From Candidatus Rokuibacteriota bacterium (GTDB lineage Bacteria > Methylomirabilota > Methylomirabilia > Rokubacteriales > DASRDR01): 18,240 nt of DNA. The notes beneath the pieces were generated by a model. That model did not search any database, was not told where the DNA came from, and worked only from the letters and a program-made list of their open reading frames with translations. The position numbers were made by a program, and so were the translations under genes. The DNA is taken from contig JBIOTN010000003.1 in the NCBI GenBank assembly GCA_044866005.1, positions 1 to 18,240 on the forward strand, in the 5' to 3' direction. The number at the start of each line of letters is the position of its first letter. Position 1 is the first letter of the stretch. Below are positions 1-18,240 of the stretch, in pieces.

Positions 1-405
1 GAGGACCCGGTCGGCGGCCGCGACGTCTTCCAGGAGGAACGCGGTGAGTCCGCGCACGCCGTCCATCTCGGGCAGGAGGTCTTCCGGGCGCGCGCCGCAG
101 ATCTGAAGCGAGGAGCTGCACACGTAGAGCCGCACGTCGCCGATCTCCTTCACCTCCCGGAAGAGGGCGGCCAGGTCGAGGAGGCCCTGACCCTCCAGCC
201 GGGCGCGCACGCCGGCCGCGTCCCCGCGGAAGGCCTCGGACAGGTTGACCTCGGCCGCGCCCGATTTCGTGACCTTCAGCACGGCCTCGTCCCGGAAGAA
301 GACGCGCACGGCGATGCCGGAGCCGGCGGCCGCCATCAGGAGCGTGGCGACCTGGACGAGGTTGTTGAAGGTCCCGCCTGATGCGATGACGGCGAGCGAC
401 TTCAC
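1..405 (-). CDS. DsrE/DsrE2-like sulfur-transfer family protein, truncated at the left window edge
   Basis: Not in the ORF track; translated by hand from GTG at 405: MKSLAVIASGGTFNNLVQVATLLMAAAGSGIAVRVFFRDEAVLKVTK...LFREVKEIGDVRLYVCSSSLQICGARPEDLLPEMDGVRGLTAFLLEDVAAADRVL. The frame is open for 135 codons to base 1. It shows the DsrE-fold pattern (V-x-V-F-F, then LYVC with Cys96) and starts 7 nt after the TusA-like stop. Confidence 0.8.
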   Translation of the reverse strand, partial: MKSLAVIASGGTFNNLVQVATLLMAAAGSGIAVRVFFRDEAVLKVTKSGAAEVNLSEAFRGDAAGVRARLEGQGLLDLAALFREVKEIGDVRLYVCSSSLQICGARPEDLLPEMDGVRGLTAFLLEDVAAADRVL

Positions 406-412
406 GCCGCCC

Positions 413-706
413 TCAGCGGCTCTCGGCGTCGGCGGGCTTCCGCTCGATGTAGGAGACGATCAGCGGGCCCCACCGCTCGTCCACCTCCGCGGTGTGACCC
501 AGGTAGGTGTGCCCGGTGTTCCGGCACCACGCCGGGTAGTCGTGCTCGGCGGCCGGGTCGGTCGAGAGCACCTTCACGACGCCCGCCGGGGGCACCCGCA
601 ACAGGACGCGCATCAGCCGCAGAATGCCCTGCGCGCAGAGCATTCCGCGGTTGTCCACGACGTCCGCGAGCGCGGCGTCCGCGACGGGCGGCGTGCGGGA
701 GGTCAC
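413..706 (-). CDS. TusA/SirA-family sulfur carrier with a variant active-site motif
   Basis: 97 aa with VVDNRGMLCAQGILRL (canonical DxxGLxCPxP), VKVLSTDPAAEHDYPAWCRNTGH and a C-terminal YIER strand. The GTG start overlaps the upstream TGA (GTGA). Confidence 0.85.
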   Translation of the reverse strand: MTSRTPPVADAALADVVDNRGMLCAQGILRLMRVLLRVPPAGVVKVLSTDPAAEHDYPAWCRNTGHTYLGHTAEVDERWGPLIVSYIERKPADAESR

Positions 707-1086
707 CAGTTCCAGACGCTGTCGAAGCGGTCGACGAACTTGCCGAGCTCGCGCCGGCTCATGAGCTTCACGCCCTTGACCAGCTCGCCCTCGTCGATCC
801 CGCGCTCCGCGACGTCCTCGCGCAAGGCGTAAACCGGCACGTTCGACGCCTGGACCGACTGCAGGTCGGTCTCGATGAGAAACCCCGGCTGGACGGTTCC
901 CCCGGCGATCTTGATCCCGGTGCCGTCCTGCCCGCGGACGGCGTAGTTCACCGCGTCCTCGCTCAGCAGGAGCGTCATCTCGTTCCCGGTGACCGGAGCG
1001 AACGCCGAGGCGAACAGGCCGATGTCCGAGTCCTCCAGGTTTCCGTACTCGGTGTGGGAAAGGACGGACAGGATCTTCTTCGGCAT
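703..1086 (-). CDS. DsrF/TusC-like (DsrE-fold) protein, no cysteine
   Basis: 127 aa with LLLSEDAVNYAVRGQ and VYALREDVAERGI, typical of DsrF/TusC. A strong SD (AAGGAGG) lies directly after the stop of the extended upstream gene. Confidence 0.8.
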   Translation of the reverse strand: MPKKILSVLSHTEYGNLEDSDIGLFASAFAPVTGNEMTLLLSEDAVNYAVRGQDGTGIKIAGGTVQPGFLIETDLQSVQASNVPVYALREDVAERGIDEGELVKGVKLMSRRELGKFVDRFDSVWNW

Positions 1087-1101
1087 CGCGCTCGCCTCCT
1101 T

Positions 1102-1533
1102 TCAGTGACCCGAGATGAGCAGGGTCTTGTCGGCCTGATCCGTGAACTTGTAGATGTCGGCCAGCGTGCCGTGCACGACGGGATCGAGGTGGTAGCCCTG
1201 TGGAACGCCCCGTTCCACGCAGCAGAGCCCTCAGACGTACCAGTTGAGGTGGGGCTCCCCCTTGCCCTTCTCGAGCAGGCGCTCGACGAACTCCGCCGTC
1301 GTGCTGTGGGCCTTTCCGGCGTCCGTGTGATGCTCGGGCTTGTCCTTCCAGATCGGGTCGTCGTGCTGCTTCTGCGCCTTCGCCGTGAGCAGGACACCGT
1401 CCTCGTAGCCCAGGACGTTCACGTTGTAGCCCTTCTCCAGGGCCGCATCCACCAGCCGGAAGACGCTGACCGGCGTCTCGTTCCCGTAGGGGCCGGCCGT
1501 CAGCGTGATGTGCAACGTCTTGCGGTTCGCCAT
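1102..1533 (-). CDS. DsrE/TusD-like selenoprotein (143 aa; UGA at codon 101 read as Sec; motif U-G-L-C-C-V-E-R-G)
   Basis: The N-terminus has TusD/DsrE motifs (TAGPYG, AALEKG, GYEDGV). After the UGA at 1233-1231 the frame stays open for 42 more sense codons (GLCCVERGVPQGYHLDPVVHGTLADIYKFTDQADKTLLISGH) to a TGA at 1104-1102 that abuts the next gene's SD. The UGA falls at the DsrE catalytic Cys position (C-x-x-C/x...RG), and a SECIS-like hairpin follows. Confidence 0.9.
1195..1228 (-). promoter_or_regulatory. Bacterial SECIS-like stem-loop
   Basis: Minus-strand mRNA reads UGA GG GCUCU GCUGC GUGGAACG GGG CGUUCCAC AGGGC. A perfect 8-bp upper stem begins 12 nt after the UGA, with a G-only apical loop about 20 nt from the UGA and a 5-bp lower stem containing one G-U pair. 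Confidence 0.8.
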
Positions 1534-1561
1534 GACTCTCCCTCTGCGGCAGGCCGCCGCT

Positions 1562-1891
1562 TCAGTGCCAGATCGCCTTGTCCGATCGCTCCATCAAGAG
1601 GTCGACCAGCTCGTTCACGTTGCTCTTGCGGACGTCCGACGACAGCCGCTCGCCCGTCACGCCGCGCTGCCGCAGCGACACGTCGTCGGCGAGCACGTGG
1701 AGGTCGTGGCCCTTGGCCTCGGCCAGGAGCGCCTCGCCGCGCTGGAACTTCCGGCGCGCGGCGAAGACCGCCTCCTGCAAGAGATAGATGGTGACGTCGT
1801 GGCGCTCGGCGCGGAGCTGCCTGCCCAGCTCGAAGGCATAGTCTCCCCCCTCGAGCGGCCCCTTCGTCTCGATCAGCAGATATCGGGACAT
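1562..1891 (-). CDS. DsrH/TusB-like (DsrE-fold) protein, no cysteine
   Basis: MSRYLLIETKGP...VTIYLLQEAVFAAR...HVLADDVSLRQRGV...ELVDLLMERSDKAIWH. The LLQ-D/E-A/G-V and D-x-x-x-RG pattern is DsrH/TusB-like. ATG 1891 is preferred over 1906 because GGAGGTG precedes it. Confidence 0.8.
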   Translation of the reverse strand: MSRYLLIETKGPLEGGDYAFELGRQLRAERHDVTIYLLQEAVFAARRKFQRGEALLAEAKGHDLHVLADDVSLRQRGVTGERLSSDVRKSNVNELVDLLMERSDKAIWH

Positions 1892-1915
1892 CGTGGTCAC
1901 CTCCATTCCCGATGA

Positions 1916-1944
1916 ACAATAGTGGAATTGCCCGGGCCTGTCAA
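1916..1944 (-). promoter_or_regulatory. sigma70 promoter of the Dsr/Tus-like operon
   Basis: Minus strand TTGACA (1944-1939), 17-nt spacer, TATTGT (1921-1916). Confidence 0.75.
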
Positions 1945-1966
1945 GCGGCCCGGGGCCCGGGAGCCC

Positions 1967-2695
1967 TCAGTTGACGCGGACGATCACGTCCGCGGGCAGG
2001 CGCGCCAGGAGGTACGCCAGGGCCCCCTCGAGGTACTCCGGCTCCTTGGACTCGAGCGTCACCCGGACCTTGTACTCGGGGTTCGAGAACTCGGGATAGG
2101 AACCGCAGAGGAGGGCCGGGAACTCCCGGAGCATCGCGTTCAGGTGCTCGGCCAGCACTCCCTCGCCGACAAGCACGTAGACGCTCCGGAGCAGGAACGG
2201 CCGCTCGCGGAAGCGCTCCTTGATCGCATCGAACTTCCGCCGGAATATCTCGGGCACGCCCGGAAAGACGAACACGTTCTTGATCGACAGCACGGGCACG
2301 ATGAGCGCGTCGGCCGCCAGGAGCTCCGCGCCTTCCGGGATCTCCGCCATCTTCAGCCGGGCGTCGTTGATCCGCTCCTGGTAGACCTCTTCGAGCCGGG
2401 CCACCAGCGTGCCGTGCCGGACCACGCCGACGCCGAGCCCCTGCGCCACACCCGCCACGGTCACGTCGTCGTGGGTCGGCCCCACGCCACCCGAGGTGAA
2501 GACCCAGTCGTAGGCGTGGTGGAACTCCCGAACCTCGCGCGCGATGAGCTCCACCTCGTCGGGAATGACCGAGACCTTGCGGACCTCCACTCCCAGCTCG
2601 CGAAACTGGCGGCAGAGGTACGCGGCGTTCAGGTCCACGACCTTGCCGGAGAGGATCTCGTTCCCGATGAGGATGATGCCGGCCGTCTTGGCCAT
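1967..2695 (-). CDS. CinA-like/molybdopterin-binding domain protein (no C-terminal PncC domain)
   Basis: The real start is internal to the 547-aa ORF: MAKTAGIILIGNEILSGKVVDLN, with TSGGVGPTHDDVT and FPGVP motifs; 242 aa. Confidence 0.88.
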   Translation of the reverse strand: MAKTAGIILIGNEILSGKVVDLNAAYLCRQFRELGVEVRKVSVIPDEVELIAREVREFHHAYDWVFTSGGVGPTHDDVTVAGVAQGLGVGVVRHGTLVARLEEVYQERINDARLKMAEIPEGAELLAADALIVPVLSIKNVFVFPGVPEIFRRKFDAIKERFRERPFLLRSVYVLVGEGVLAEHLNAMLREFPALLCGSYPEFSNPEYKVRVTLESKEPEYLEGALAYLLARLPADVIVRVN

Positions 2696-2796
2696 CGGCG
2701 GACCCGTCAGGCGTGATTGTACAAAGGCCCGGACGTGTCGAGCAAGCCGCGCACGGCGCCGGCGCGGACCGCCGAGCCGGGCGCGGGGCGGTCGCG

Positions 2797-2825
2797 TTGT
2801 CACCCTGGGAGGCGTGCGGTACAAT
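2797..2825 (+). promoter_or_regulatory. sigma70 promoter for the enoyl-ACP reductase gene
   Basis: TTGTCA (2797-2802), 17 nt, TACAAT (2820-2825). A divergent TACAAT lies on the minus strand at 2721-2716 upstream of the CinA-like gene. Confidence 0.65.
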
Positions 2826-2860
2826 CCCGGCGTGCCGAAACCGGCCGCGTGCAGGACGCG

Positions 2861-3676
2861 ATGACGCCCGACCCCGCCCTCCGCCTGTCCGGTTGGGCGC
2901 TCGTCCTGGGCGCCTCCTCCGGCTTCGGCGAGGCCGCCGCGCTCGCCCTGGCCGAGGCCGGCCTCTCCATCGCGGGCGTCCACCTCGACCGCAAGGCGAC
3001 CCTGCCGAATGCCGAACGCATCGCCGGGGAGATCCGTCGCCAGGGCCGGGAGGCGCTCTTCTTCAACGTGAACGCCGCCGACCCCGAGCGCCGCGCCGAG
3101 GTCCTCGACGCCGTGCAGCGGCACCTGGACGCCCGCCAGGAAGCCGGCCGGCTCCGCGTCATGCTCCACTCGCTCGCCTTCGGAACGCTGCGGCCGTTCA
3201 TCGCCGAGCCCATCAAGGAAGCGGCGTCGAAGGAGCAGATGGAGATGACCCTCGACGTGATGGCTCACACGCTGGTCTACTGGGCGCAGGACATCGTGAC
3301 CCGGGGGTTGATGGCGGACGGCGGGCGGATCTTCGCGATGACGAGCGCGGGCGGCACGCGCGTGCTTCCGAACTACGGGCCCGTCTCGGCCGCCAAGGCC
3401 GCGCTGGAGTCCCACGTCCGCCAGCTCGCCATGGAGCTCGCACCCCGCGGGATCACCGTCAACGCCGTGCGTGCCGGCGTGACCGACACCCCGGCCCTGC
3501 AAAAGATCCCGGGCGCGGACAAGATCAAGGCGATGGCGCTCGCGCGGAACCCCTTCGGGCGCCTCACCACGCCGCTCGACGTCGCCCGCGCCATCGTCGC
3601 CCTGTCGCACTCCAGCACGTACTGGATGACGGGAAACGTGCTGGGGGTGGATGGCGGCGAAGACGTCATCGGCTGA
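2861..3676 (+). CDS. SDR-family enoyl-ACP reductase (FabL/FabI-like)
   Basis: LVLGASSGFG Rossmann motif, catalytic Y-x6-K (YGPVSAAK), NAVRAGVTDTPAL and VDGG. Start placed at ATG 2861, downstream of the promoter. Confidence 0.85.
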   Translation: MTPDPALRLSGWALVLGASSGFGEAAALALAEAGLSIAGVHLDRKATLPNAERIAGEIRRQGREALFFNVNAADPERRAEVLDAVQRHLDARQEAGRLRVMLHSLAFGTLRPFIAEPIKEAASKEQMEMTLDVMAHTLVYWAQDIVTRGLMADGGRIFAMTSAGGTRVLPNYGPVSAAKAALESHVRQLAMELAPRGITVNAVRAGVTDTPALQKIPGADKIKAMALARNPFGRLTTPLDVARAIVALSHSSTYWMTGNVLGVDGGEDVIG

Positions 3677-3846
3677 CGCCGTGCCGACAGCCGTCGCAGC
3701 TCGGCTACCTGCATCACGGCCGGGACGCGCTCGGCCTGCGGCCTCGCGGCCGTCCCGGCCTCTGGGCCCCTCGGCCGGCCTCAGCGCCCGGCCAGCTCTC
3801 TCCCGCGCCGGCTGAGCGCATCCCCCTCCGGCTCCCCCCCGGCCGC

Positions 3847-4650
3847 GTGAGCCTCGCCCATGCCCTGGCGCTCGGGGTCGTCCAGGGCCTGACCGAGTTC
3901 CTGCCGGTCTCCTCCTCCGGCCACCTGGTGCTCGTGCCGGTCCTCTTCGGATGGCCGGACCAGGGTCTGGCCTTCGACGCCGCGGTTCACCTCGGGACGT
4001 CGCTGGCCCTCGTCTTCTACTTCTGGTCCGAGCTCCGGCGGATCGCCGCCGGCGCCCTCGCCGGCCGGCGCGCGGACTGGCGGCTCGTCGCCGCGCTCCT
4101 GGCGGGCACCGCGCCCGCGAGCGTGGCGGGACTCCTGCTCGAAGAGACCGTGGCGACCTATCTCCGCTCGGCCGTGGTCGTGGCGGCGGCGACCATCGGC
4201 TGGGGTCTGGTCCTCTGGTGGGCCGACCGTCAAGCGACCCGGACCGGCGTGACGCAGCTCGGGGCCGTCGGGGTCTCCCGCGGCTTCGTGATCGGCGCGG
4301 CGCAGGTCCTCGCTCTGGTGCCCGGCACCTCCCGCTCCGGGATCACGATGTCGGCCGGCCTCTTCGCCGGGCTCGACCGTCCGACCGCGGCGCGCTTCGC
4401 GTTTCTCCTCGGCCTGCCGGTCACCGCGGGCGCGGGCGCCATGAAGACCGTGGCGATCCTGGAGGGCGGCGCCGGGGGGCCCGGGGCGGCGGCACTCACG
4501 CTCGGCGTCGTGACCTCGTTCGTCGCGGGGCTCGCCGCCGTCTGGTTCCTCATCCGGTTCCTCCAGCACCGGACCCTCCTGGTCTTCGTGGGCTACCGGA
4601 TCCTCCTCGGGCTGGTGATCCTCGCGCTCGTGCTGGCGGGTCGGATCTGA
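3847..4650 (+). CDS. uppP: Undecaprenyl-diphosphate phosphatase
   Basis: GVVQGLTEFLPVSSSGHL and PGTSRSGIT motifs, multiple TM segments; GTG start at 3847 (C-terminal part of the 645-aa ORF). Confidence 0.95.
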   Translation: MSLAHALALGVVQGLTEFLPVSSSGHLVLVPVLFGWPDQGLAFDAAVHLGTSLALVFYFWSELRRIAAGALAGRRADWRLVAALLAGTAPASVAGLLLEETVATYLRSAVVVAAATIGWGLVLWWADRQATRTGVTQLGAVGVSRGFVIGAAQVLALVPGTSRSGITMSAGLFAGLDRPTAARFAFLLGLPVTAGAGAMKTVAILEGGAGGPGAAALTLGVVTSFVAGLAAVWFLIRFLQHRTLLVFVGYRILLGLVILALVLAGRI

Positions 4651-4655
4651 AGCAT

Positions 4656-4682
4656 CGGAGGGGGCCTCGACGGCCGCCTCCG
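4656..4682. repeat. GC-rich palindrome between convergent genes (REP-like element or bidirectional terminator)
   Basis: CGGAGG-G-GGCC TCGAC GGCC-G-CCTCCG: 10 paired bases, one G-G mismatch, 5-nt loop, no U-tract. Confidence 0.55.
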
Positions 4683-4689
4683 GCAGGGG

Positions 4690-5823
4690 TCAGGGGGCGC
4701 GCCACCACACGCGGCCGGCCCGCACGGTCAGCCTCGGCATCCAGCGCTTGGCGCCCTCGATCGTGTTGCCGTCGGCGTCCTGGTAGGCGAAGCGGCCGTC
4801 CTCCACGGCAAAGACCGCGGCGTCCCCAGCCGCGCCGCCCTGGAGCGTCCCCAGGTCACCGCTTCGCCCGATGGCCTTCGCCGGCGCGGCCGTGGCGGCG
4901 CGGACGACGCGGTCGAGCGGCATCCCGAGGCTCAGGAACTTCGAGAGCGTGGTCGGCAAGTCCTTGACGACGCCGGCGCGCCCGGGACGCGTGAGGTCCG
5001 ACGAGATCGTGTCGGGATAGAACTCTTCCGCCAAGGCCTGCCGGACCACCGGGAAGTTCACGTGGTTCCGACCGTGGGCGACGTCGAAGACGACGCCGCG
5101 GCGCCGTGCCTCGTGGACCGCCGGCTTGACGCGCCCGCCGGCGTCGAGGATCCCCGAGCCCCGACCGTGGAAGAAGTGGCTCACGATGTCGCCGGGACGG
5201 AGGAGCGCGAGCACGTCGCCGTACTCGCCGGGCGGGTTGTTGACGTGCACGATCACGGGCAGGCCGGCCGCCTGTGCCGCCCGGATCCCCCGCCGCAAGG
5301 GCTCGAGCCCGTGAGCGCCGACGACCTCCTTCTGGATCCGGACCTTGATCCCGAGGATCGTATCGCGGTGCTCCCGCGCCACCCCGGCTGCCAGGTCGGG
5401 GTCCGCGTAGTCCAGCAGACAGTGCTCGCCGATCCCGAGGTGGGTGAGCCCGATCGCGGAGACGTGGAGGAAGGCCAGGACGCGGGTCTCCGCGCGCGCC
5501 ACGATGTACTCGCGGAGCCCGGCGAAGTTGCCCGCGCCGGTGCTCCCGGCGTCGCAGAGCGTGGTCACGCCGGTCGACGCGCAGACCGGGTCGGTCTGGA
5601 CGCCGAGGTCGTGGCCGGCGATGAACGCGTGAGCGTGCAGGTCCACGAGTCCGGGCGCGACGTAGGCGCCCGCGACGTCGACCGTCTCCCGCGCGGCGTC
5701 CCGGGGGATCGCCGCGTCCACCGCCGCCACGCGCCCGGCCGAGAAGGCGACGTCCCGGCGCCCGTCCACCCCGGTTGCCGGATCGATGAGGTGGCCGCCT
5801 GTGAGGACGAGGTCGAAGCGCAT
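4690..5823 (-). CDS. Amidohydrolase/deacetylase family metallohydrolase (dihydroorotase-like)
   Basis: APGLVDLHAH (HxH), GVTTLCDAGSTG, GIKVR, VHV, SHFFHG, DVAHG and TISSDL motifs; purine-rich SD upstream (GGAAGGAAGAGG). Confidence 0.9.
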   Translation of the reverse strand: MRFDLVLTGGHLIDPATGVDGRRDVAFSAGRVAAVDAAIPRDAARETVDVAGAYVAPGLVDLHAHAFIAGHDLGVQTDPVCASTGVTTLCDAGSTGAGNFAGLREYIVARAETRVLAFLHVSAIGLTHLGIGEHCLLDYADPDLAAGVAREHRDTILGIKVRIQKEVVGAHGLEPLRRGIRAAQAAGLPVIVHVNNPPGEYGDVLALLRPGDIVSHFFHGRGSGILDAGGRVKPAVHEARRRGVVFDVAHGRNHVNFPVVRQALAEEFYPDTISSDLTRPGRAGVVKDLPTTLSKFLSLGMPLDRVVRAATAAPAKAIGRSGDLGTLQGGAAGDAAVFAVEDGRFAYQDADGNTIEGAKRWMPRLTVRAGRVWWRAP

Positions 5824-5854
5824 GTCCTCTTCCTTCCCGCGGCGCCGCGCGCCC

Positions 5855-6067
5855 TCAGGGCTGGCGCTGCTCCCAGACTCGAAGGACGTACCCCACCGCG
5901 ATGACGACGAGGCCCAGGACGAGCCCGACGATGAGCCGCGGTCCCCCGCGCGGCGGGTCGCCCGTGGCGTCGGCCAGGACGGCGGCCGCCACGATCACGA
6001 CGCCGGCGATCGTCACGCCCGGCCAGGCGTCGCGCGCGCGGCCGAAGCGGGGCGGGCGGACCTTCAC
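5855..6067 (-). CDS. Small hypothetical protein with two predicted TM helices
   Basis: 70 aa with two hydrophobic stretches (GVTIAGVVIVAAAVLA; LIVGLVLGLVVIAVGYVL), co-oriented with and 31 nt from the amidohydrolase. Confidence 0.55.
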   Translation of the reverse strand: MKVRPPRFGRARDAWPGVTIAGVVIVAAAVLADATGDPPRGGPRLIVGLVLGLVVIAVGYVLRVWEQRQP

Positions 6068-6070
6068 GGC

Positions 6071-6253
6071 TCAGGCGGCCTCGCCGAGAACGCCACGGGC
6101 GGGGCGGCGGCCGGCCACGTCATGCACCCTCACGAGCCGCACGAACGCGAGGAACAGGAGCGCGAGAACCAAGAAGTCGCTGAGCCGCGCGCCGTACGAG
6201 GTGGACCCGAGGGGTGCGAGCACGAGCAGCGCCTGGACCGGACGGCGGGCCAT
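6071..6253 (-). CDS. Small hypothetical membrane protein or gene remnant
   Basis: About 60 aa (MARRPVQALLVLAPLG...DFLVLALLFLAFVRLV...GEAA), ending 3 nt before the next GTG and lying downstream of a promoter-like sequence. No clear SD. Confidence 0.35.
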   Translation of the reverse strand: MARRPVQALLVLAPLGSTSYGARLSDFLVLALLFLAFVRLVRVHDVAGRRPARGVLGEAA

Positions 6254-6321
6254 GGTGGGTGACATCCGGGAACGGCAGGGGGCTCCCGCGCGCGCCGCCA
6301 GGCACCCGCTTCCGCCCGTCC

Positions 6322-6350
6322 TTGATAGCATGCCGCCCGAGGCCGGTCAA
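6322..6350 (-). promoter_or_regulatory. sigma70 promoter for the small ORFs/amidohydrolase unit
   Basis: Minus strand TTGACC (6350-6345), 17 nt ending in TGc, TATCAA (6327-6322), giving an extended -10. Confidence 0.55.
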
Positions 6351-6392
6351 GGCGGACCCGACGCGGCGAAGTGGCGGCGGCCCGCCGGAAAC

Positions 6393-6422
6393 GTGACGCG
6401 CTTCGCGTCACCGGGGTAGGAT
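6393..6422 (+). promoter_or_regulatory. Perfect inverted repeat plus -10 box upstream of the histidine kinase
   Basis: GTGACGCG-CTT-CGCGTCAC (6393-6411); TAGGAT at 6417-6422, 7 nt before ATG 6430. Confidence 0.5.
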
Positions 6423-6429
6423 AGGCGGC

Positions 6430-7905
6430 ATGGATGGAACGGGATCCGAGGCGCGCGCCCCGGGCGCGACCTCCCCGTCTCCCGCAGGGCGGCGCGCGGG
6501 CTCCGCGCGCGTGGGGTCCCCGACCCGCCAGTTCGCCCTCCTGAGCCTCTTGACCCTCGGCGGCAGCACGCTCCTCTTCGGCTTCGCGCTCGCATACTAC
6601 GTCGAGCGCGGGATCCTGGATCACGAGTGGGCCACCACGTCGGCCCTCTTGCGGACCGCGGCGCGCTTCTACCTGCGCCCGTCGGACTTCGCCCGGCGCG
6701 GAGAGAGCTCGAGCCCGGCGAGCGACGAGGCGGGCGATCGCTTCGAGGAGTTCAGCCGTCAGGTGCGGATGCTGCCGGAGATCCTGCGGCTCGTCGCGTA
6801 CGACAACCGTGGCGGCGTCGTCTGGACGGATGGCGACCCCGGCAGGCTTCATCCCGCGCACGCCTCGCTCCGGCAGGCGCTCGGCGGGGAGACGAGCATC
6901 CAGCTCGAGCCGCGCACCCGCGACCGCGCGGAGCGCGTCGAGATCTACGTGCCGATCACCTACCCCGGCGAGGGCCGCATCGCCGGCATCATCGAGGCCT
7001 ACGTGGACCCGACCCGCGTGCTGGCGAGTGTCCGGCGCGCGCGGCTCATCTTGTGGAGCCTCGCCGCCCTCTCGGGCACGGTCCTCTACGCCGTCCTGTA
7101 CGGCATCGTCTGGCGGGCCTCGCGCCAGCTGCGGGCGCAGCACGCCGCGCTCCGGGAGCGCGCCGCGGAGCTGGCCCGCGCGAACGCGGAGCTCCGCGCC
7201 GTCCACCGCCAGCTCGTGACGGCCGAGCGGTTCGCGGCCTTCGGCGAGATCACCGCGGCCGTAGCGCACGGGCTGGGTAACCCGCTCGCCGTCATCCGGT
7301 CGACCGCGCAGGTCGCGCTGCTGGACGCGCCGGCCGGCCCCCTCCGCGACGGACTCTGCCAGGTGATCGCCGAGACCGACCGCCTGTCGGAGCGCATGCG
7401 AGCGCTGCTCGACTTCGGCCGGCCGGTGGAGCAGCGGCGCGTGCCGACGGCGCTCGAGGCCGCCGTCCGCCCCGCGCTCGAGTCGATCCGCGCGCGCGCC
7501 GCCGCGCAGGACGTCCGCCTGGACGTCGCGGTGGGCGGCGAGTTCCCGAAAGTCCGCCTCGACCCCGCCCGGTTCGAAGAGGCGCTCCTCTGTCTCCTCG
7601 GGAACGCCCTCGACGCCATGCCGCGCGGGGGCTCGCTGCGGGTCGTGGCCTCCGCGGCGGCCGACGGCGACGCGACGGCCGGCCGGGCCCTCACCCTCGT
7701 CGTCGAAGACACCGGACCCGGCATTCCCGCGGCCGTCCTGGCGCGGGTCTTCGAGCCCTTCTTCACCACCAAGCGCGGCGGGACCGGGCTCGGGCTCGCG
7801 GTCGCCCGAAAGCTCCTGGAGAGCGGAGGCGGCCGGCTCGAGCTCCGGACCGAGCCGGGACGCGGCACGCAGGCCATCATGACGCTGCCGGTCGACGAGG
7901 CCTGA
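6430..7905 (+). CDS. Membrane sensor histidine kinase (NtrB-like)
   Basis: Two TM segments flank an extracytoplasmic domain, followed by a coiled coil, H-box AAVAHGLGNPL, N-box LGNALDAM, EDTGPGI, FEPFFTTK and GTGLGL. The start could alternatively be GTG 6511. Confidence 0.93.
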   Translation: MDGTGSEARAPGATSPSPAGRRAGSARVGSPTRQFALLSLLTLGGSTLLFGFALAYYVERGILDHEWATTSALLRTAARFYLRPSDFARRGESSSPASDEAGDRFEEFSRQVRMLPEILRLVAYDNRGGVVWTDGDPGRLHPAHASLRQALGGETSIQLEPRTRDRAERVEIYVPITYPGEGRIAGIIEAYVDPTRVLASVRRARLILWSLAALSGTVLYAVLYGIVWRASRQLRAQHAALRERAAELARANAELRAVHRQLVTAERFAAFGEITAAVAHGLGNPLAVIRSTAQVALLDAPAGPLRDGLCQVIAETDRLSERMRALLDFGRPVEQRRVPTALEAAVRPALESIRARAAAQDVRLDVAVGGEFPKVRLDPARFEEALLCLLGNALDAMPRGGSLRVVASAAADGDATAGRALTLVVEDTGPGIPAAVLARVFEPFFTTKRGGTGLGLAVARKLLESGGGRLELRTEPGRGTQAIMTLPVDEA

Positions 7906-7906
7906 G

Positions 7907-9304
7907 GTGCCACCCACGGTCCTGATCGTCGAGGACGAGGCGCCGCTGGCCTCGGCCCTCCAGACCTTCCTCCAGCGCCAGGGATTGCCCGTCCACGCCT
8001 TCGCCTCGGCAGAGGCCGCGCTGCCGGCCCTCGCCGAGGTGGCGCCGGACCTCGCCCTCGTCGACGTCCATCTGCCGGGCATGGACGGGCTCGCCATGCT
8101 GGACGCCATCCGCCGCGAGCGTCCGGAGACCCAGGTCATCCTGATGACGGCCTTCTCCACCGTCTCGAGCGCGGTGGCGGCGATGAAGGCCGGTGCCGTG
8201 GACTACCTGACGAAGCCCCTCGACCTCGACGAGCTCTCGGTCGTGATCCAGCGCGTCTGGGAAGGCCACCGGGTCCGCGGGGAGCTCGCCTACCTGCGCG
8301 AGCGGGCCGGGCATTCCCTGCCGGTGGACAGCCTCCTCGGAAACGCTCCGGCCATGGTGGCGGTCCGGCAGCGCATCCTCCAGGTGGCGCGCGCGGACCG
8401 CGTGGGCGAGGCCGGACCCACCGTCCTGGTACAGGGGGAGACCGGCACGGGCAAAGAGCTGGCCGCGCGCGCGATCCACGCGGCCGGTCCCCGGGCCGGC
8501 GGGCCCTTCGTCGAGATCAACTGCGCCGCGATCCCCGCGGCCCTCCTCGAGGGCGAGCTGATGGGCTTCGAGAAGGGGGCGTACACGGACGCCCGGACCA
8601 GCAAGCCGGGGCTCTTCGAGGCGGCCGACGCGGGAACGCTCTTCCTCGACGAGATCTGCCTGCTCGATCTCGCGCTCCAGGCGAAGCTCCTGCGCGTGAT
8701 CGAGGACCGTTCCGTGCGCCGGCTCGGCGCCGTGACCCCGCGGCGGGTGGACATCCGGATCGTCGCGGCGACGAATCGCGATCTCGAGACCGCCGCGCGC
8801 GAGGGGGCGTTCCGGCAGGACCTCCTCTATCGTCTTCGCGTCCTGACGGTCGACCTCCCGCCCCTGCGCACCCGGGGCGAGGACGTCGTCTTGCTGGCCG
8901 AGCACTTCCTCCGGCAGGTCCGCGAGCGGTACGGGCTCGGCGAGATCCGCTTCTCCTCCGCTGCCCTTCGTGAGCTTCAGGCCTACTCCTGGCCGGGAAA
9001 CGTGCGCGAGCTCACCAACGTGGTCGAGCGGGCCGCGCTCCTCAACCCGGGACCGACGCTCGGCCCCGAGCACCTCGCGCTCGTGGACAGCCCCTCCATG
9101 CCGGTGGCGGTGGGCCCGGACGGGGAGGTCCGGGTGGACTTCGCGCACGGGCCCATCAACCTGGAGGTGGTCGAGCGATCGCTGATCCACCGGGCGCTGG
9201 CCCATACCGGCTGGAATCGCGCGCGGGCCGCCGAGCTGCTCGGCCTGACGAAGGAGACCTTGCGCTACCGGATGGAGAAATACCGCCTCAGCCCCGACTC
9301 ATGA
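7907..9304 (+). CDS. sigma54-dependent response regulator (REC + AAA+ + Fis HTH)
   Basis: Receiver motifs VEDE / DVHLPGMDG / TKP, Walker A GETGTGKE, loop GAYTDA, Walker B LFLDEI, FRQDLLYRL, WPGNVREL, and C-terminal NRARAAELLG HTH. Confidence 0.96.
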   Translation: MPPTVLIVEDEAPLASALQTFLQRQGLPVHAFASAEAALPALAEVAPDLALVDVHLPGMDGLAMLDAIRRERPETQVILMTAFSTVSSAVAAMKAGAVDYLTKPLDLDELSVVIQRVWEGHRVRGELAYLRERAGHSLPVDSLLGNAPAMVAVRQRILQVARADRVGEAGPTVLVQGETGTGKELAARAIHAAGPRAGGPFVEINCAAIPAALLEGELMGFEKGAYTDARTSKPGLFEAADAGTLFLDEICLLDLALQAKLLRVIEDRSVRRLGAVTPRRVDIRIVAATNRDLETAAREGAFRQDLLYRLRVLTVDLPPLRTRGEDVVLLAEHFLRQVRERYGLGEIRFSSAALRELQAYSWPGNVRELTNVVERAALLNPGPTLGPEHLALVDSPSMPVAVGPDGEVRVDFAHGPINLEVVERSLIHRALAHTGWNRARAAELLGLTKETLRYRMEKYRLSPDS

Positions 9305-9436
9305 GCCGGCCGGGAAATCCCCGCGCGCCACGGGCAGATGCCCACAAATGCGCCAGGCCAGGCGCGTCGACCGGCCGTCGTCTCGAAAGCACGCGTTTCG
9401 ACAGCGTTTACGCTCCCCGAGCCGAGGAGGAGGCTT

Positions 9437-9451
9437 TGGCACGCCCCTTGC
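9437..9451 (+). promoter_or_regulatory. sigma54 (-24/-12) promoter
   Basis: TGGCAC-GCCCC-TTGC, an exact match to TGGCAC-N5-TTGC, 73 nt upstream of ATG 9525. Confidence 0.88.
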
Positions 9452-9524
9452 CCGACAGTTCCGGGCAGGCGGCGACTCCCCGGGTGAGGAGCGCCGTGGT
9501 CCCAGACCCGAAGAAGGAGGGGGC

Positions 9525-10505
9525 ATGAGCGGGCGGAGCGGTCGGTGGCCCCGATTGCTACTGGCCCTCGCCTGCCTCCTCTACCTTCTTTCGCCCGGTC
9601 CGCAACCCCAGCGGCTGACCGGCGGTGATCCCACGACCGCCATCGCCGACGACAAGGGAGGCGGCGACGGGAAAGACGGGAAAGGCGGGGGCGGCGGCTC
9701 GGGCTCCGGGGGGTCAGGTTCTGGCGGCTCCGGCGGTTCGGGCTCGGGCGGTTCGGGGTCCGGCGGTTCGGGGTCCGGCGGCGCCGGCGGCTCGGGTGGC
9801 TCGGGCTCCGGCTCCGGGAGCGGGGGGGACGGCAAGGGCGGGGGCGGCGAGGGGAAGGGTGGGGGCGGCGAAGGGAAAGGGAGCGGCAACGGCAAAGGGG
9901 GCGACGGTAAAGGCGGGGCAGGCGAAGGCAAGGGCGGCGGTGGTGAGGGCAAGGGCGGCGGCTCCGCTGGGAAGGGCGGCGGTACCGACGACTTGTCCGG
10001 GCGCGAGCCGGCCACTGGCCGCGGCACCGGACGCGCCGGCTCGGAGGGCCGCGGCGGCGGAGTGACCCGCGGGGCCGATCCGGGCGGTGTCGGCGCCGCC
10101 GGCGCGCCGGCCGTCGGAGCGGCCGCCGGCCGAGGAGGCCAGCGCGAGGCGCGGGACGCCGCGCGCGCCGCCGCCGAGGCTGCCCGCGACGCGGCCCGGG
10201 CGGCGGCGGACGCGGCTCGAACGGCCGCGCGCCAGGGACAGGGCGCCCAGCCAGGGCGTGCCCAGGCCATCGCCGACGCCGCGCGGGATGCCGCGCAGAC
10301 CGCCGCCGGCGCGGCGCGCGAGGCCGAGCGCGCGGCCGTCGAGGCCGCGCGCGCCGCCGAGATCGCAGGCGGCGGCGACGGGAGCGACGCCCAGCGGAGC
10401 GCGAACCTCGCGGCCGAGCTGGCGCTCGACGCCGCGGAACGTGCACGGGAAGCCGCCGACGAGGCGGCCGACCGTCCGGAGCGCGAGGCCCGCGGCCGCC
10501 CCTAG
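9525..10505 (+). CDS. Exported low-complexity Gly/Ser/Lys-rich and Ala-rich hypothetical protein (326 aa)
   Basis: SD AAGGAGG precedes ATG 9525. An N-terminal basic plus hydrophobic segment (RWPRLLLALACLLYLLS) is followed by a possible AIA|DD cleavage site, GSG repeats, GKG repeats and an Ala/Arg/Glu helical C-terminus. Confidence 0.8.
   Translation: MSGRSGRWPRLLLALACLLYLLSPGPQPQRLTGGDPTTAIADDKGGGDGKDGKGGGGGSGSGGSGSGGSGGSGSGGSGSGGSGSGGAGGSGGSGSGSGSGGDGKGGGGEGKGGGGEGKGSGNGKGGDGKGGAGEGKGGGGEGKGGGSAGKGGGTDDLSGREPATGRGTGRAGSEGRGGGVTRGADPGGVGAAGAPAVGAAAGRGGQREARDAARAAAEAARDAARAAADAARTAARQGQGAQPGRAQAIADAARDAAQTAAGAAREAERAAVEAARAAEIAGGGDGSDAQRSANLAAELALDAAERAREAADEAADRPEREARGRP
9684..9983 (+). repeat. 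Coding low-complexity tandem repeats: (GGSGS)n then eight x-G-K-G units
   Basis: The translation [33 protein letters not shown]... is followed by GDGKGGGGEGKGGGGEGKG...; codons differ between units. Confidence 0.85.
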
Positions 10506-10508
10506 CCG

Positions 10509-11312
10509 ATGCGCGCGCGTTGGTCGGGACGCGCTCGCGCCGCGGTCTCCGGAGGGCTTGCGACCCTCCTCGTCCTCGGCGTCGTTTCCCTGCCGAGGGC
10601 TCAAGGCGTCCTCGAGGGGCTCCGTCGCGGCGTCCGGGCCCAGGCCGCGTTCGTCCGGGCCAAGGCCCTGTACGACGCGCGCAACTATGAGGGCGCGCGC
10701 GAGCGGCTGACCGAAGCGCTCGACCTGGAGGCCGACCACGATGAGGCTCGCGCGCTCCTCGGATGGTCGGAATACTTCCTCGGCGAGTACCGGGCCGCCA
10801 GCATCACCTTCAAGACCACGCTCCGCCGCCAGCCCACGTGGGAAGGGCTCCACAACGGTCTGGGCTGGAGCCGGATCCGGCTCGGCCGCTACCACCTGGC
10901 CGCCGAGGCCTTCCGCGCCGCGCTCGACCTGAACCCAAACTATACCGACGCCATGATCGGCCTCGGCACGGCCCAGTTCGAGATCGGCCGCTACGAGGCG
11001 GCACTCCCGCACTTCCAGACCGCCCTGCGCCGCCTCGAGCCGCTGGCCGGCCCGGACCCATCCGAGGTCCCCTCGGTCCGCGCCAAGCTCGCCTGGACCC
11101 TCTACTATCTCGGTCGCTACCGGGAGGCGCTCTCGGTCTTCGAGCAGGGCATCCGCGCCACGCCGGACTGGCACGGGCTGCACAACGGCGCCGGCTGGTG
11201 CTACCTCAAGCTCGGCCAGAAAGCGCAGGCGCGCGCCGCCTTCCAGCGAGCGCTCACGCTCAAGCCCGACTACGACGACGCGCGGGAGGGTCTGAGACAG
11301 GCGAGCGGCTGA
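10509..11312 (+). CDS. Tetratricopeptide-repeat protein with N-terminal signal/TM segment
   Basis: About 6 TPR-like units (LGWSEYFLGEY, LHNGLGWSRIRLGRY, LGTAQFEIGRY, LAWTLYYLGRY, LHNGAGWCYLKLGQ); starts 3 nt after the Gly-rich gene. Confidence 0.9.
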   Translation: MRARWSGRARAAVSGGLATLLVLGVVSLPRAQGVLEGLRRGVRAQAAFVRAKALYDARNYEGARERLTEALDLEADHDEARALLGWSEYFLGEYRAASITFKTTLRRQPTWEGLHNGLGWSRIRLGRYHLAAEAFRAALDLNPNYTDAMIGLGTAQFEIGRYEAALPHFQTALRRLEPLAGPDPSEVPSVRAKLAWTLYYLGRYREALSVFEQGIRATPDWHGLHNGAGWCYLKLGQKAQARAAFQRALTLKPDYDDAREGLRQASG

Positions 11313-11330
11313 CGACCTGGGAGGGGGCCA

Positions 11331-11348
11331 CGGCGGCAAAGGCCGCCG
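11331..11348. terminator. Possible terminator hairpin between convergent genes
   Basis: CGGCGGC-AAAG-GCCGCCG, a 7-bp stem 18 nt after the TPR stop; no U-tract. Confidence 0.3.
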
Positions 11349-11429
11349 CTCGGACGCTGTCGCGGGCAGGCGAGGCTTGGTGCGACAGGCGCCTGGCCGT
11401 CGCGACGGGACCGGCGACGGCCGGCCGCG

Positions 11430-12263
11430 TCAGGGCTTCAGACGGACGTGGAGGTACAGGTCACCCGGCGTCCCGTCCGGCCGTGGCTCGCCCTTGCCCC
11501 GCAGTCGAAGGCGCGTCCCCGTGCGAAGCCCGGGCGGCACGCGAACCAGGAGCTCCTCCGCCCCGCCCGGGCGGCGGATGGTGAGCCGATAGCGGCCGCC
11601 CTCGCGGAGATCTCCGGCCGTCAGCGCGATCTCGTACTGGAGGTCGCCGCGCCGCGTCCCCTCCGCGGCGGGAGCGAGGGCGCGCGCGAGCAGGCGCCCG
11701 GTCTCCGCCAGGCGGCCCCCGAGCCAGCCGAGAAACCCCGGCCGCGACGCGACGGTCTCCCCCGCGGCCGTTCCCGGTCCCCCCTCGGGCACGCGCTCGA
11801 CGCCGGCCCGCGGGCGGCGCGCGCCGACCCACCGGATCCCGAACCGCCCGACGATGATGACGCCGCGGCCCCGGAAGAACACGTCGCGCAGGAAGGCCTC
11901 GTCGAAGCGGAGCCCCTGCCGGGTCCACTCGCGCGTGAGGTCGTCGAACACCGACGCGGTCCGGGGATCGGTGAAGAGGTCGCGGAAGAGATCCTCCTGC
12001 CGCCAGCGCGGCGCGCGCCCGCGGGCGCCCTCCGCCCGCGCCCGCCGGAGCGCGTCGTACTCCCGCCGGCGCCCCGGGTCCATCAGGACGGCGTAAGCTT
12101 CGCTGATCTCCTTGAAGCGCTCTTCGGCCCGCTTGTCGCCGCGGTTCCGATCGGGGTGGTGACGGAGGGCCAGGCGCCGGTAGGCCCGCTTGACCTCGTC
12201 CTCGGGCGCGCTCTCGGGGACCCCGAGGATCGCGTAGTAGTCGCGGTCGGCCCTCGCCCGCAC
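11430..12263 (-). CDS. J-domain co-chaperone (class B DnaJ/CbpA-like, no zinc finger)
   Basis: [22 protein letters not shown] and a single DnaJ C-terminal repeat (VRVPPG...LRLRGKG...GDLYL). Confidence 0.9.
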
Positions 12264-12273
12264 GGTCGGGAGA

Positions 12274-13422
12274 CTAGGAGAGCTCGGTGTGGAGGCGAAG
12301 CACCTCGGCCAGAAGCTCGGCCGTCGCGTGGACGTCCCGGAGGTCGAGCCACTCCTTCACCGTGTGGATCTCGCGCATCCCGGTGCCGAGGTTCGCCACC
12401 TCGATCCCCTGGCCGTTGAATACGTTGGCGTCCGAGCCGCCGCCGGTCGGCCGCAGCCGGACGTCGCGGCCGAGCTTCCGTCCGGCCTCCACGACGAGGC
12501 GGACGATCCGCGTGTCGGGCGCGAGACGCAGGGCCTCGTAATCGCGCTGAACGTCGGCCTCCACCCGGGCCCGGTAGACCGCCTCTCCGGCTCGCACCTC
12601 GTGCCGCCGCGCGGCCTCCTCGAAGCACTGCCGCATGTGCGCGGTCTGCGTCTCGAGCTTCCGGACGTCGCGGCTGCGCGCCTCTCCCCGGAGGACGACC
12701 TTCGGTGGAATGATGTTCGTCGCCAGCCCGCCCTCGATGATGCCGAGGTTCGCCGTCGTTTCCGCGTCGACGCGCCCGAGCCGCATGGCCGCCACCGCCT
12801 CCGCCGCCACGCGGATGGCGGAGATCCCGGCCTCGGGCGCCACGCCGGCATGCGCCTCGCGTCCGTGGACGCGGAACACCATGCGGTCGGCGGCCGGTCC
12901 GGCTGTGATCAGCTCCCCCACGCCGTCCGAGTCCAGGACCAGGCCGTGCCGGGCCCGGAGCCGGGAGACGTCGAAATGCTTGGCGCCCAGCAGGCCGATC
13001 TCCTCGCAGATCGTGAAGACCACCTCCACGTCGCCGTGCGGGACACCCCGCTCCCCGAGGCCGCGGAGCGCCTCGACGATGATCGCGCACCCGGACTTGT
13101 CGTCGCCGCCCAGGACGCTCGTCCCGTCGGTCCGCACGATGCTGCCCTCGACCACGGGCCGGACGCGCTCGCACGGCACGACCGTGTCCATGTGCGCGGA
13201 GAGCAGCAGGGGCGGGGCGCCGGGCACCGTCCCCCGCACGCGCGCGAAGACGTTCCCGGTGGTGCCGCCGACCTTCTCGCCGGCGTCGTCCACCGAGACC
13301 TCGGCGCCGAGCGCCGCCAGCTCCGTCCTGAGCCGCGCCGCGACCTCCTGCTCGCGTCTGGACGGGCTCGAGATGCGCAGGAGGTCGAGCAGGAGACCGG
13401 TGAGCCGCTCTCGATCGATCAT
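12274..13422 (-). CDS. M20 family metallopeptidase (peptidase T-like)
   Basis: [26 protein letters not shown] and IHTVKE motifs; SD GGGAGG and a TACAAT -10 upstream. Confidence 0.92.
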
Positions 13423-13552
13423 GACGCCTCCCAGGGTGATTGTACCCGGAAAGGCCGCTCCGGGCCGGGGCTCGGCCAGGCGCCCCCGAGCCGGAATTCG
13501 TGGCGATTCGATCGGGCCTGATTTAATCTGAGTCCACCACGGGAGGGCGGCC

Positions 13553-15778: not shown

Positions 15779-15780
15779 CT

Positions 15781-15804
15781 TCGGGGGGGTTCGGACCCCC
15801 CCGA
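15781..15804. repeat. Perfect G/C-run palindrome between convergent genes (REP-like element or terminator)
   Basis: TCGGGGGGGT-TCGG-ACCCCCCCGA, a 10-bp stem starting 2 nt after the stop at 15778. Confidence 0.6.
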
Positions 15805-15871
15805 TGCCCCCGCCGTGGCGCCGGCAAGACGCCGGTGCTCGGAGCGCACCCGCGGCTGACCGCGAGAGCCG

Positions 15872-16654
15872 CTACCGGGCGCCGAAGGCCCGCCGCACGT
15901 TGTCGGCCAGGATTGCCACGACCTCGGCGAGCGGGCGGGCCACGAGGCGGGCGACCGCGGCCGCCGCGGGCCCGAGCATCGCCGGCTCCCCCACCCGGCC
16001 CGCGAACTCGCCGCCGTGCGCCCAGGGTCCGTCGGATTCGAGGAGGACGTGGCGCAACGGCACGTCCCGGACGAGGGCCTGGTCACGCTCGCGGTAGACG
16101 ACCGCGGGGGTGATCCCGACGAAGTGGCCGGCCTCGACGATCCGCCGCGTGACGGCACGGTCGGCCTTGTGCCAGTGAAACACCGCCCGCTCGACGCCGC
16201 CGCGGGTCACCAGCTCGAGCGCGTCCACGGCGGCGCCGTGCGGGGCGTGGAGCGAGACGGGAAGGTCGAGCCGCCGCGCGACGTCGAGGAGCCGCCGGAG
16301 GCGCTCGCGGCCGACGGCCGCGAGGGCCGCCGCGTCGCCCCGGCCCCGGAGGCTGTACCAGGGCAGGCCGACCTCGCCGACCGCTCTCAGCTCGGCCCGG
16401 GCCGCCTGGAGCTGCGCCTCGACCGTCTCGACGTCCTCCGCCCCGAGATCGAGGCGCTCCGGATGATAGCCGAGGGCCGGCCACACGTCAGCGTGGCGCC
16501 GGGCGAGCGCGAGCACCGTCTCGTTGGCCCGGGGGTCGGTGCCGACGGCGAGCACGTGGTCGACGCCAGCGCGGTGGGCGCGGGCCAGGACCGCCTCCAC
16601 GTCGGCGAATGCGGGGTCGGCGAGATGGCAGTGGGTGTCGGTGAGCCCGCTCAC
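15872..16654 (-). CDS. tatD: TatD-family metal-dependent hydrolase
   Basis: DTHCHL, GYHP, VGEVGL, FHW and LESDGP motifs. Confidence 0.88.
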   Translation of the reverse strand: MSGLTDTHCHLADPAFADVEAVLARAHRAGVDHVLAVGTDPRANETVLALARRHADVWPALGYHPERLDLGAEDVETVEAQLQAARAELRAVGEVGLPWYSLRGRGDAAALAAVGRERLRRLLDVARRLDLPVSLHAPHGAAVDALELVTRGGVERAVFHWHKADRAVTRRIVEAGHFVGITPAVVYRERDQALVRDVPLRHVLLESDGPWAHGGEFAGRVGEPAMLGPAAAAVARLVARPLAEVVAILADNVRRAFGAR

Positions 16655-16739
16655 CGCGCGGAATCGCGGGGGCGGTCGGGGCGCGGGGCGCGGCCGCCCG
16701 GACGTCGGCCGACGACCGGGGCGCCGCCCCGGGAAAGCG

Positions 16740-18077: not shown

Positions 18078-18114
18078 TCGGAGCTCCGACGCCGGGCCGA
18101 GAAGCGAGCAGATC

Positions 18115-18240
18115 CAGATGGAATGAAGCGGCTGACCTCCCCCGCGACGTGGTGGCATACACTGCCCCACAAGCAAACGCGGTCTGTGCCGCAAGCGAAG
18201 GAGGCCAGCCATGGAACATAGTGGCATCGACGTGCACAAG
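18115..18240 (+). mobile_element. Probable left end of an IS110-family element (boundary approximate)
   Basis: About 95 nt of noticeably less GC-rich non-coding sequence precedes the GIDVHK ORF and begins about 40 nt upstream of the divergent pmbA start. Confidence 0.55.
18211..18240 (+). CDS. IS110-family transposase/recombinase, first 10 codons only
   Basis: SD AAGGAGG, then MEHSGIDVHK, matching the N-terminal GIDxxK (first DEDD Asp) signature of IS110 transposases. Confidence 0.7.
   Translation, partial: MEHSGIDVHK

Follow-up and report, generated by a model that had tools for sequence, protein, structure and literature searches.

The fold that concerns us here is found in Escherichia coli YchN (PDB 1JX7), a stand-alone homo-oligomer, and in two heterohexameric sulfur-relay complexes, Allochromatium vinosum DsrEFH (2HY5) and E. 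coli TusBCD (2D1P). Selenocysteine (Sec)-containing proteins of this type are also on record. In their Sargasso Sea study, Zhang, Fomenko & Gladyshev (2005, PMC1088965) listed two sequences of a selenoprotein family named 'DsrE-like protein' (Pfam02635), with a UxxC motif (U, Sec; x, any residue). One DsrE-like selenoprotein was reported in Desulfovibrio vulgaris (PMC1794560), and two reviews include the family under the reference WP_014524487.1 (PMC9312934, PMC13188914); AACY01486889 is a further reference member. In this study, we analyzed an 18,240-nt stretch of DNA from a Candidatus Rokuibacteriota bacterium (GenBank assembly GCA_044866005.1, contig JBIOTN010000003.1, positions 1 to 18,240; hereafter the window), in which an earlier note had suspected a hidden DsrE-like selenoprotein gene on the minus strand and had stated, in agreement with the literature above, that such proteins had been predicted before. 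We found that the gene at 1533..1105 has a PF02635 domain and a UxxC motif and is, by the published definition, a new member of the DsrE-like selenoprotein family listed since 2005.

The best explanation of this locus as a whole is that the gene encodes a 143-residue selenoprotein with the DsrE/YchN fold, for which we estimate a probability of about 0.85. It resembles the known family in its PF02635 score above the gathering value, the predicted Sec as the first residue of UxxC, a hairpin of the bacterial Sec insertion sequence (SECIS) type just 3' of it, Cys-containing homologues and truncated annotation. On the other hand, it has 143 residues, a UxxCC site and, at residues 52–78, some 25 inserted residues of low model confidence, is confined to Rokubacteria/Methylomirabilota-type genomes, and lies in the middle of a conserved DsrH-like/E/DsrH-like module, with TusA and a DsrE3-like gene next in line. 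The features of the gene are as follows.

1105..1533, minus strand: coding sequence of the predicted DsrE/YchN-fold selenoprotein, 143 residues (translation with TGA as U, PF02635, orthologues, dN/dS, AlphaFold2 model)
1231..1233, minus strand: UGA at codon 101, very probably read as Sec (conserved TGA, Cys in distant homologues, Cys78 column)
1200..1218, minus strand: bacterial SECIS-type hairpin, 8-bp stem of 1218–1211 with 1207–1200 and GGG loop at 1210–1208
1102..1104, minus strand: true stop TGA, the end of the frame translated with TGA as U
1095..1101, minus strand: AAGGAGG, the next gene's Shine-Dalgarno sequence, immediately 3' of the true stop, with the ATG at 1086, 8 nt downstream

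The open reading frame (ORF) as called covers 1533..1231 (minus strand) and yields 100 amino acids, ending at the TGA at 1233..1231. Translation of 1533..1102 (minus strand) with TGA as U gives 143 residues, in which U101 stands in the context NWYV-U-GLCCVERG and is followed by 42 codons. The earlier note had described this extended U101-G-L-C104-C105 frame, with 42 codons past the UGA and its end beside the Shine-Dalgarno sequence of the next gene, and each of its statements about the sequence holds. PF02635 (DsrE) spans the TGA, matching residues 9–138 with 36.1 bits against a Pfam gathering score of 22.7, and the UxxC motif is formed by U101-G-L-C104. The G+C content of the local DNA is 73%.

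To place the gene among its relatives, a protein search of 5.8 billion sequences was used, which returned 60 matches. All 57 close matches (75–98% identity) are 99–112 amino acids long, cover at most 70% of the query and do not extend beyond residue 100, which bears out the expectation that standard annotation would truncate the selenoprotein. Five of the 60 were inspected: four end in W-Y/H-V and one is frameshifted. At the genome level, a match was detected in 8 of the 61 genomes of the order. Seven of these, including the window's own, carry the TGA form with 83–99% identity over residues 1–143 and one TGA each; the frame of the eighth (G033, 43% identity) is free of stops and has the sequence TWVN-C-GLCVDERG. 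A GTDB species set added a wider view with 26 loci, and TGA is present at the same codon in all 18 close ones (79–95% identity). These are labelled mostly Candidatus Rokuibacteriota or Methylomirabilota, and a few Gemmatimonadales, Acidobacteria or Binatia. Seven further loci of this set, cyanobacterial or uncultured (31–37% identity), have N-C-G-L-C, and the remaining one is a weak match in Sporosarcina to residues 1–40 only.

Removal of duplicates left 20 distinct Sec-form loci (21 rows in the codon table), with pairwise nucleotide identities of 73–92%; the orthologues are 79–99% identical over residues 1–143. Codon 101 is TGA in 21/21 rows, and the true terminator varies among the loci (TGA in 14, TAG in 4, TAA in 2). 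Close relatives thus keep TGA and not TGC or TGT at residue 101 and distant ones have Cys, the pattern for which the earlier note had advised a search. The ratio of nonsynonymous to synonymous substitution rates (dN/dS), calculated from 16 full-length loci (120 pairs), is 0.153 for codons 2–100, 0.215 for codons 102–143 and 0.182 for codons 112–143. A value of about 0.2 after the TGA implies that the tail is translated and subject to the same purifying selection as the head. On the evidence of these alignments, UGA101 is a sense codon under selection. Inspection of 15 short representatives revealed no second Sec-bearing clade: they are fragments or carry frameshifts, and their ends do not fall immediately ahead of the Cys column.

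The hairpin had been described in the note as a perfect 8-bp stem with a G loop, 12 nt after the UGA, and we could reproduce both its position and its pairing. The stem is 100% complementary over 8 bp and begins 12 nt 3' of the UGA, the distance from UGA to loop is 20 nt, and the folding energy is −13.3 kcal/mol. Its 3-nt loop beginning with G, 8-bp stem, 20-nt spacing and folding energy all lie within the constraints on bacterial SECIS elements given in one of the reviews (PMC13188914). The five hairpin codons 107–111 (GAA CGG GGC GTT CCA) are without any change in 20/20 loci. Among 72 degenerate codons whose amino acid is invariant, 17 never change, and these include all five hairpin codons (hypergeometric P = 4.4e-4). 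If only such codons with at least four synonyms are considered, 5 of 40 are frozen, namely hairpin codons 108–111 and codon 100 just 5' of the UGA. Several of the fixed codons are rare elsewhere in these genes (GAA makes up 9% of Glu, GTT 2% of Val and CCA 2% of Pro codons), and synonymous sites vary freely in the flanking codons 112–120. Frozen synonymous sites within the hairpin codons imply that selection acts on the RNA, as it should if this is a SECIS element; judging from this codon pattern, RNA-level constraint applies to the hairpin that begins 12 nt past the UGA. Together with the dN/dS of about 0.2 past the TGA, the invariance of the hairpin codons provides the conservation on the 3' side that the note had said should be present.

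Sec insertion requires a dedicated machinery, and the note had also suggested a search for selA, selB, selC and selD; all four are present in the window's genome (247 contigs, 94% complete). The tRNA-Sec scores 76.2 bits and has the anticodon TCA, and selA (595 bits) and selB (382 bits) directly adjoin its gene on contig C79. The selD gene (391.6 bits; G000:C1:1101-2021, locus L018) also encodes a selenoprotein: its frame contains a single TGA, at the classical SHGAG-U-ACKL position. There, the UGA is followed by 12 nt, an 8-bp stem and a GGA loop, a geometry matching the hairpin of the DsrE-like gene, and selD can therefore serve as an internal control for what the SelB of this organism should recognise. 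Within the order, selA is above cut-off in 52/61 genomes, including 6 of the 7 with the TGA form. Taken with the conserved codon and hairpin, the comparative data indicate that UGA101 is very probably recoded as Sec. The recoding mechanism itself is ordinary.

Several observations weigh against this interpretation. In single-sequence tests, the 71-nt fold is no more stable than shuffled sequences (33/200 as good, z −1.14), and neither is the 38-nt fold (44/200 as good, z −0.69); what exceeds chance is the comparative evidence. No stem pair shows a compensatory change across the 20 distinct loci, covariation being absent because the stem never varies, and the outermost pair is broken in two loci by a change from GTG to CTG. 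Neither a SECIS family nor any other credible one emerged when positions 1000–1700 were scanned against Rfam (E ≤ 10). Finally, genome G029 (scored 100% complete, 240 contigs), whose DsrE-like gene is locus L025, has the TGA form and no selA, selB or tRNA-Sec above cut-off. G029 does carry a TGA-containing selD (G029:C202:25099-26043). Because selC, selA and selB share one short stretch in the window's genome, the likeliest reason for the gap is that a single contig bearing them is absent from the G029 bin, which is an assumption on our part.

We then examined the active site and fold of the protein. Among 25 distant homologues, the Cys at column 101 shows at least 90% conservation; across 32 aligned sequences, neither C104 nor R108 ever varies, and C105 is specific to the Sec clade. 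An AlphaFold2 model built from the 32 aligned sequences has a predicted local distance difference test (pLDDT) score of 89.4 and a predicted template modelling (pTM) score of 0.83; its weak part is around residues 52–78, with block means of 64–81. Foldseek identified YchN as the best structural match (1jx7_A, E 1.4e-8, template modelling (TM) scores 0.73/0.88, root-mean-square deviation 1.8), followed by DsrE of DsrEFH (2hy5_A, E 3.9e-8) and TusD (2d1p_A, E 5.3e-6). The family-profile matches come in the same order: YchN (E 1.7e-13), DsrE (1.6e-7) and TusD (0.0025, N-terminal half only).

In the profile alignments, U101 falls on Cys78 of DsrE (VVCVAAAQRRG) and on Cys78 of YchN (KLCKTCTDGRG), and C104 falls on YchN Cys81. 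The earlier note had placed the Sec at Cys78 of both Allochromatium DsrE and E. coli TusD. The first half of this claim is borne out by profile alignment; for TusD, whose profile alignment ends at residue 70, the correspondence is one of fold similarity only. YchN, the best match by both profile and fold, shares C78-x-x-C81 followed by x-x-R-G, aligned with U101-x-x-C104, whereas it has Cys instead of Sec and lacks the insertion at residues 52–78. No NCBIfam model describes the 143-residue protein, and the YedF model TIGR03527 did not hit it at E ≤ 0.01. Since no such model matches and no paper on it was found, the note's idea of an unrecorded subfamily is plausible. Our literature search found neither a Sec-bearing DsrEFH-type cassette nor this protein in Rokubacteria, and the groundwater survey of metagenome-assembled genomes (MAGs) by Deng et al. 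may already list it; a Methylomirabilota MAG with 63 predicted selenoproteins from that survey is cited in a review (PMC13188914).

Five genes follow one another closely on the minus strand, and the selenoprotein gene comes second. The other four are listed below in the direction of transcription.

1565..1906, minus strand: upstream DsrH/DsrE-like gene, 114 amino acids, no Cys (PF04077 27.7 bits, PF02635 24.6 bits)
706..1086, minus strand: downstream DsrH/DsrF-like gene, 127 amino acids, no Cys (PF04077 27.4 bits)
416..706, minus strand: TusA-like sulfur carrier, 97 amino acids, with the conserved Cys in GMLCAQG (PF01206 45.2 bits)
1..405, minus strand: DsrE3-like gene (PF02635/DrsE_2; PF02635 34.7 bits), its last codons lost at the contig end

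Orthologues of the DsrE3-like protein run two residues past the last residue in the window (e.g., L033 8009-8503). The presence of the neighbors was assessed by tblastn in 18 assessable Sec-form and 8 Cys-form loci. The upstream H-like gene is beside the E gene in 18/18 Sec-form and 8/8 Cys-form loci, and the 127-residue downstream gene is present in 17/18 and 8/8, respectively; the whole H-like/E/F-like trio is found in 25 of the 26 assessable loci. The TusA and DsrE3-like pair is present in 16/18 Sec-form loci (absent from L038 and L043) and in 0/8 Cys-form loci. In the sole exception to the trio (L038:7446-8282, labelled Acidobacteria), a gene with a metallo-beta-lactamase fold and a Ser/Thr kinase gene replace the 127-residue partner, TusA and DsrE3. 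The Cys-form trio (DsrH-like, DsrE with CGLC, and a 126-residue DsrH-like protein; loci L049-L055 and L030, e.g., L051:6589-7854 and L030:1102-2281) occurs in Cyanobacteria, including diatom endosymbionts, and in one genome of the window's order. We know of no described function for the conserved DsrH-like/DsrE/DsrH-like trio.

The surroundings of the cassette differ among loci. In the window, its flanks contain a CinA/MoCF-type gene and housekeeping genes. At L041:2278-5835, the cassette is immediately preceded, on the same strand, by a sat-sir fusion gene (ATP-sulfurylase/sulfite-reductase, 972 amino acids) and a sirohaem synthase gene. Four other loci (L033, L036, L042 and L044) have genes for a divergent extracytoplasmic function (ECF) sigma factor and an RskA-type anti-sigma factor directly upstream of the cassette; neither is present in this window. 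The same four loci, from related genomes, contain genes for a TtuA-type tRNA 2-thiolation enzyme and a ThiS-like carrier 2.4–5 kb upstream. We rejected these as functional evidence, as they are on the other strand, are separated from the cassette by unrelated genes and are absent here.

The trio with one reactive subunit, kept across phyla, resembles DsrEFH/TusBCD, and for this reason a hetero-oligomer may be considered. In these heterohexameric complexes, as in the trio, the reactive residue lies in one of three small co-encoded DsrE/F/H-type proteins, and TusA is encoded alongside here. The differences are that the order here is H-like, E, H/F-like; that no DsrC/TusE was found; that Sec takes the place of Cys, with a second Cys three residues on; and that the proteins are below the TIGR03012 and TIGR03011 cut-offs. 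For the TusB equivalog model TIGR03011, the score is 25.7 bits against a cut-off of 49.2.

A possible mechanism can be outlined on the basis of established bacterial Sec biology, homology and gene order. SelB with Sec-tRNA(Sec) would bind the hairpin on the translating mRNA and insert Sec at UGA101. The resulting U101-G-L-C104-C105 site would lie where a strand ends and a helix begins, the place at which Cys78 of DsrE carries its persulfide. With its two DsrH-like neighbors, which have no Cys, the selenoprotein would form a hetero-oligomer like DsrEFH/TusBCD and be the one subunit in it to bear Cys or Sec. Sec101 might then take sulfane sulfur from the co-encoded TusA and/or DsrE3-like protein as an Se-S(H) adduct, and Cys104 might either forward the sulfur or release it through a selenenylsulfide. 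We consider sulfur-relay or persulfide chemistry in such a hetero-oligomer to be a tentative proposal, its chances, as judged from the sequences, falling a little short of even. More doubtful is the specific version in which Sec, in the catalytic subunit of a DsrEFH-type complex working with TusA and the DsrE3-like protein and without DsrC/TusE, serves a Se-dependent sulfane-sulfur relay peculiar to Rokubacteria. If true, it would be the first persulfide-relay hetero-oligomer using Se-S intermediates. Such a relay may be fed by assimilatory sulfite reduction (the sat-sir genes adjoin the cassette in one locus) or may itself feed thiolation enzymes.

Four points speak against a relay. The TusD/DsrE equivalog model TIGR03012 scores 17.5 bits against a cut-off of 89.25, and the selenoprotein resembles YchN, a protein without an assigned function, more than it does TusD/DsrE. 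No match to DsrC/TusE (PF04358) was detected in the 94%-complete genome, implying that the canonical downstream acceptor is missing. In addition, UxxC pairs are characteristic of redox proteins and not of pure persulfide carriers. The main functional alternative, which we regard as unlikely though it deserves attention, is that the protein is a real selenoprotein and not a sulfur carrier, either with a UxxC redox center (e.g., as a reductase of persulfides or disulfides, with TusA or DsrE3 as its substrate) or with a role in selenium or metal handling like that proposed for the DsrE-like domains of YedF and SaoD. The YchN relationship and the lack of a DsrC/TusE acceptor would both be in keeping with it, and DsrE-like UxxC proteins are listed under thiol-dependent redox selenoproteins in the Sargasso Sea study (PMC1088965). 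The U-G-L-C site fits the CGXC motif of selenium-linked YedF's DsrE-like domain as described in PMC5322559, and SaoD DsrE-like proteins, according to the preprint's account of them, have CxxC, sometimes CxxCC, and are encoded beside metal-transport genes (bioRxiv 10.1101/2022.07.06.499078).

In these sources (PMC5322559; bioRxiv 2022.07.06.499078), YedF and SaoD share with the present protein a (C/U)-G-x-C motif in a PF02635 domain, a TusA/SirA-type partner and a link to selenium. However, SaoD is reported there never to be a selenoprotein, and in comparison with YedF, TIGR03527 is unmatched and TusA is here a separate gene, three genes away by our count. Metal-transport neighbors were not seen in the loci scanned. 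Moreover, the gene is placed between DsrH-like genes and then followed by TusA and the DsrE3-like gene, all of sulfur-trafficking families, and in one locus the cassette comes directly after the sat-sir fusion and sirohaem synthase genes, which argues for sulfur-relay chemistry over a redox, selenium or metal role.

Other alternatives concern the TGA itself. It could be a genuine stop, so that an N-terminal fragment of 100 residues is made and perhaps also, from a start at GTG106, a C-terminal one of 38 residues, as in a split gene or a decaying pseudogene. Gene callers yield exactly such pieces: the close database matches have 99–112 residues, and representative P0066 is a 38-residue ORF covering residues 106–143. 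Codon 106, a GTG, could act as a start, and TGA is the usual stop in the window. However, codon 101 is never TAA or TAG in the 20 loci, unlike a real terminator. GTG106 is CTG in two loci, is inside the hairpin stem and has no Shine-Dalgarno sequence. A stop would also remove a near-invariant catalytic Cys column, while dN/dS remains at 0.2 across the junction region, the Pfam domain and a confident fold span the TGA, and the genome has a complete Sec machinery. A genuine stop is therefore very improbable. Reading of the TGA as Trp or another standard residue, via an alternative code or leaky termination, is hardly credible, as nothing specific favors it beyond a frame that would be open under any TGA-sense code, the homologues align Cys and not Trp there, a dedicated hairpin and tRNA-Sec exist, and TGA is an ordinary terminator that ends most ORFs with high G+C at third codon positions (GC3) in the window, this gene included, so that an alternative genetic code is excluded.

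Since all 57 close database copies stop at residue 100 and lack the active site, function predictions for the cassette in soil and groundwater Rokubacteria are wrong at present. The corrected annotation would add a selenoprotein to a phylum already described as selenoprotein-rich (PMC13188914). Should both the hetero-oligomer and the relay prove true, the Sec form of Rokubacteria and the Cys form of cyanobacteria would make a natural pair for asking what selenium adds to persulfide transfer.

Two further observations were made in this genome. A second pair of adjacent DsrE-family genes is present at G000:C190:32992-33675 (PF02635 34.8 and 22.1 bits). In the window, positions 13616–15778 (plus strand) contain a high-GC3 ORF of 720 amino acids with no Pfam match at E ≤ 1e-4.

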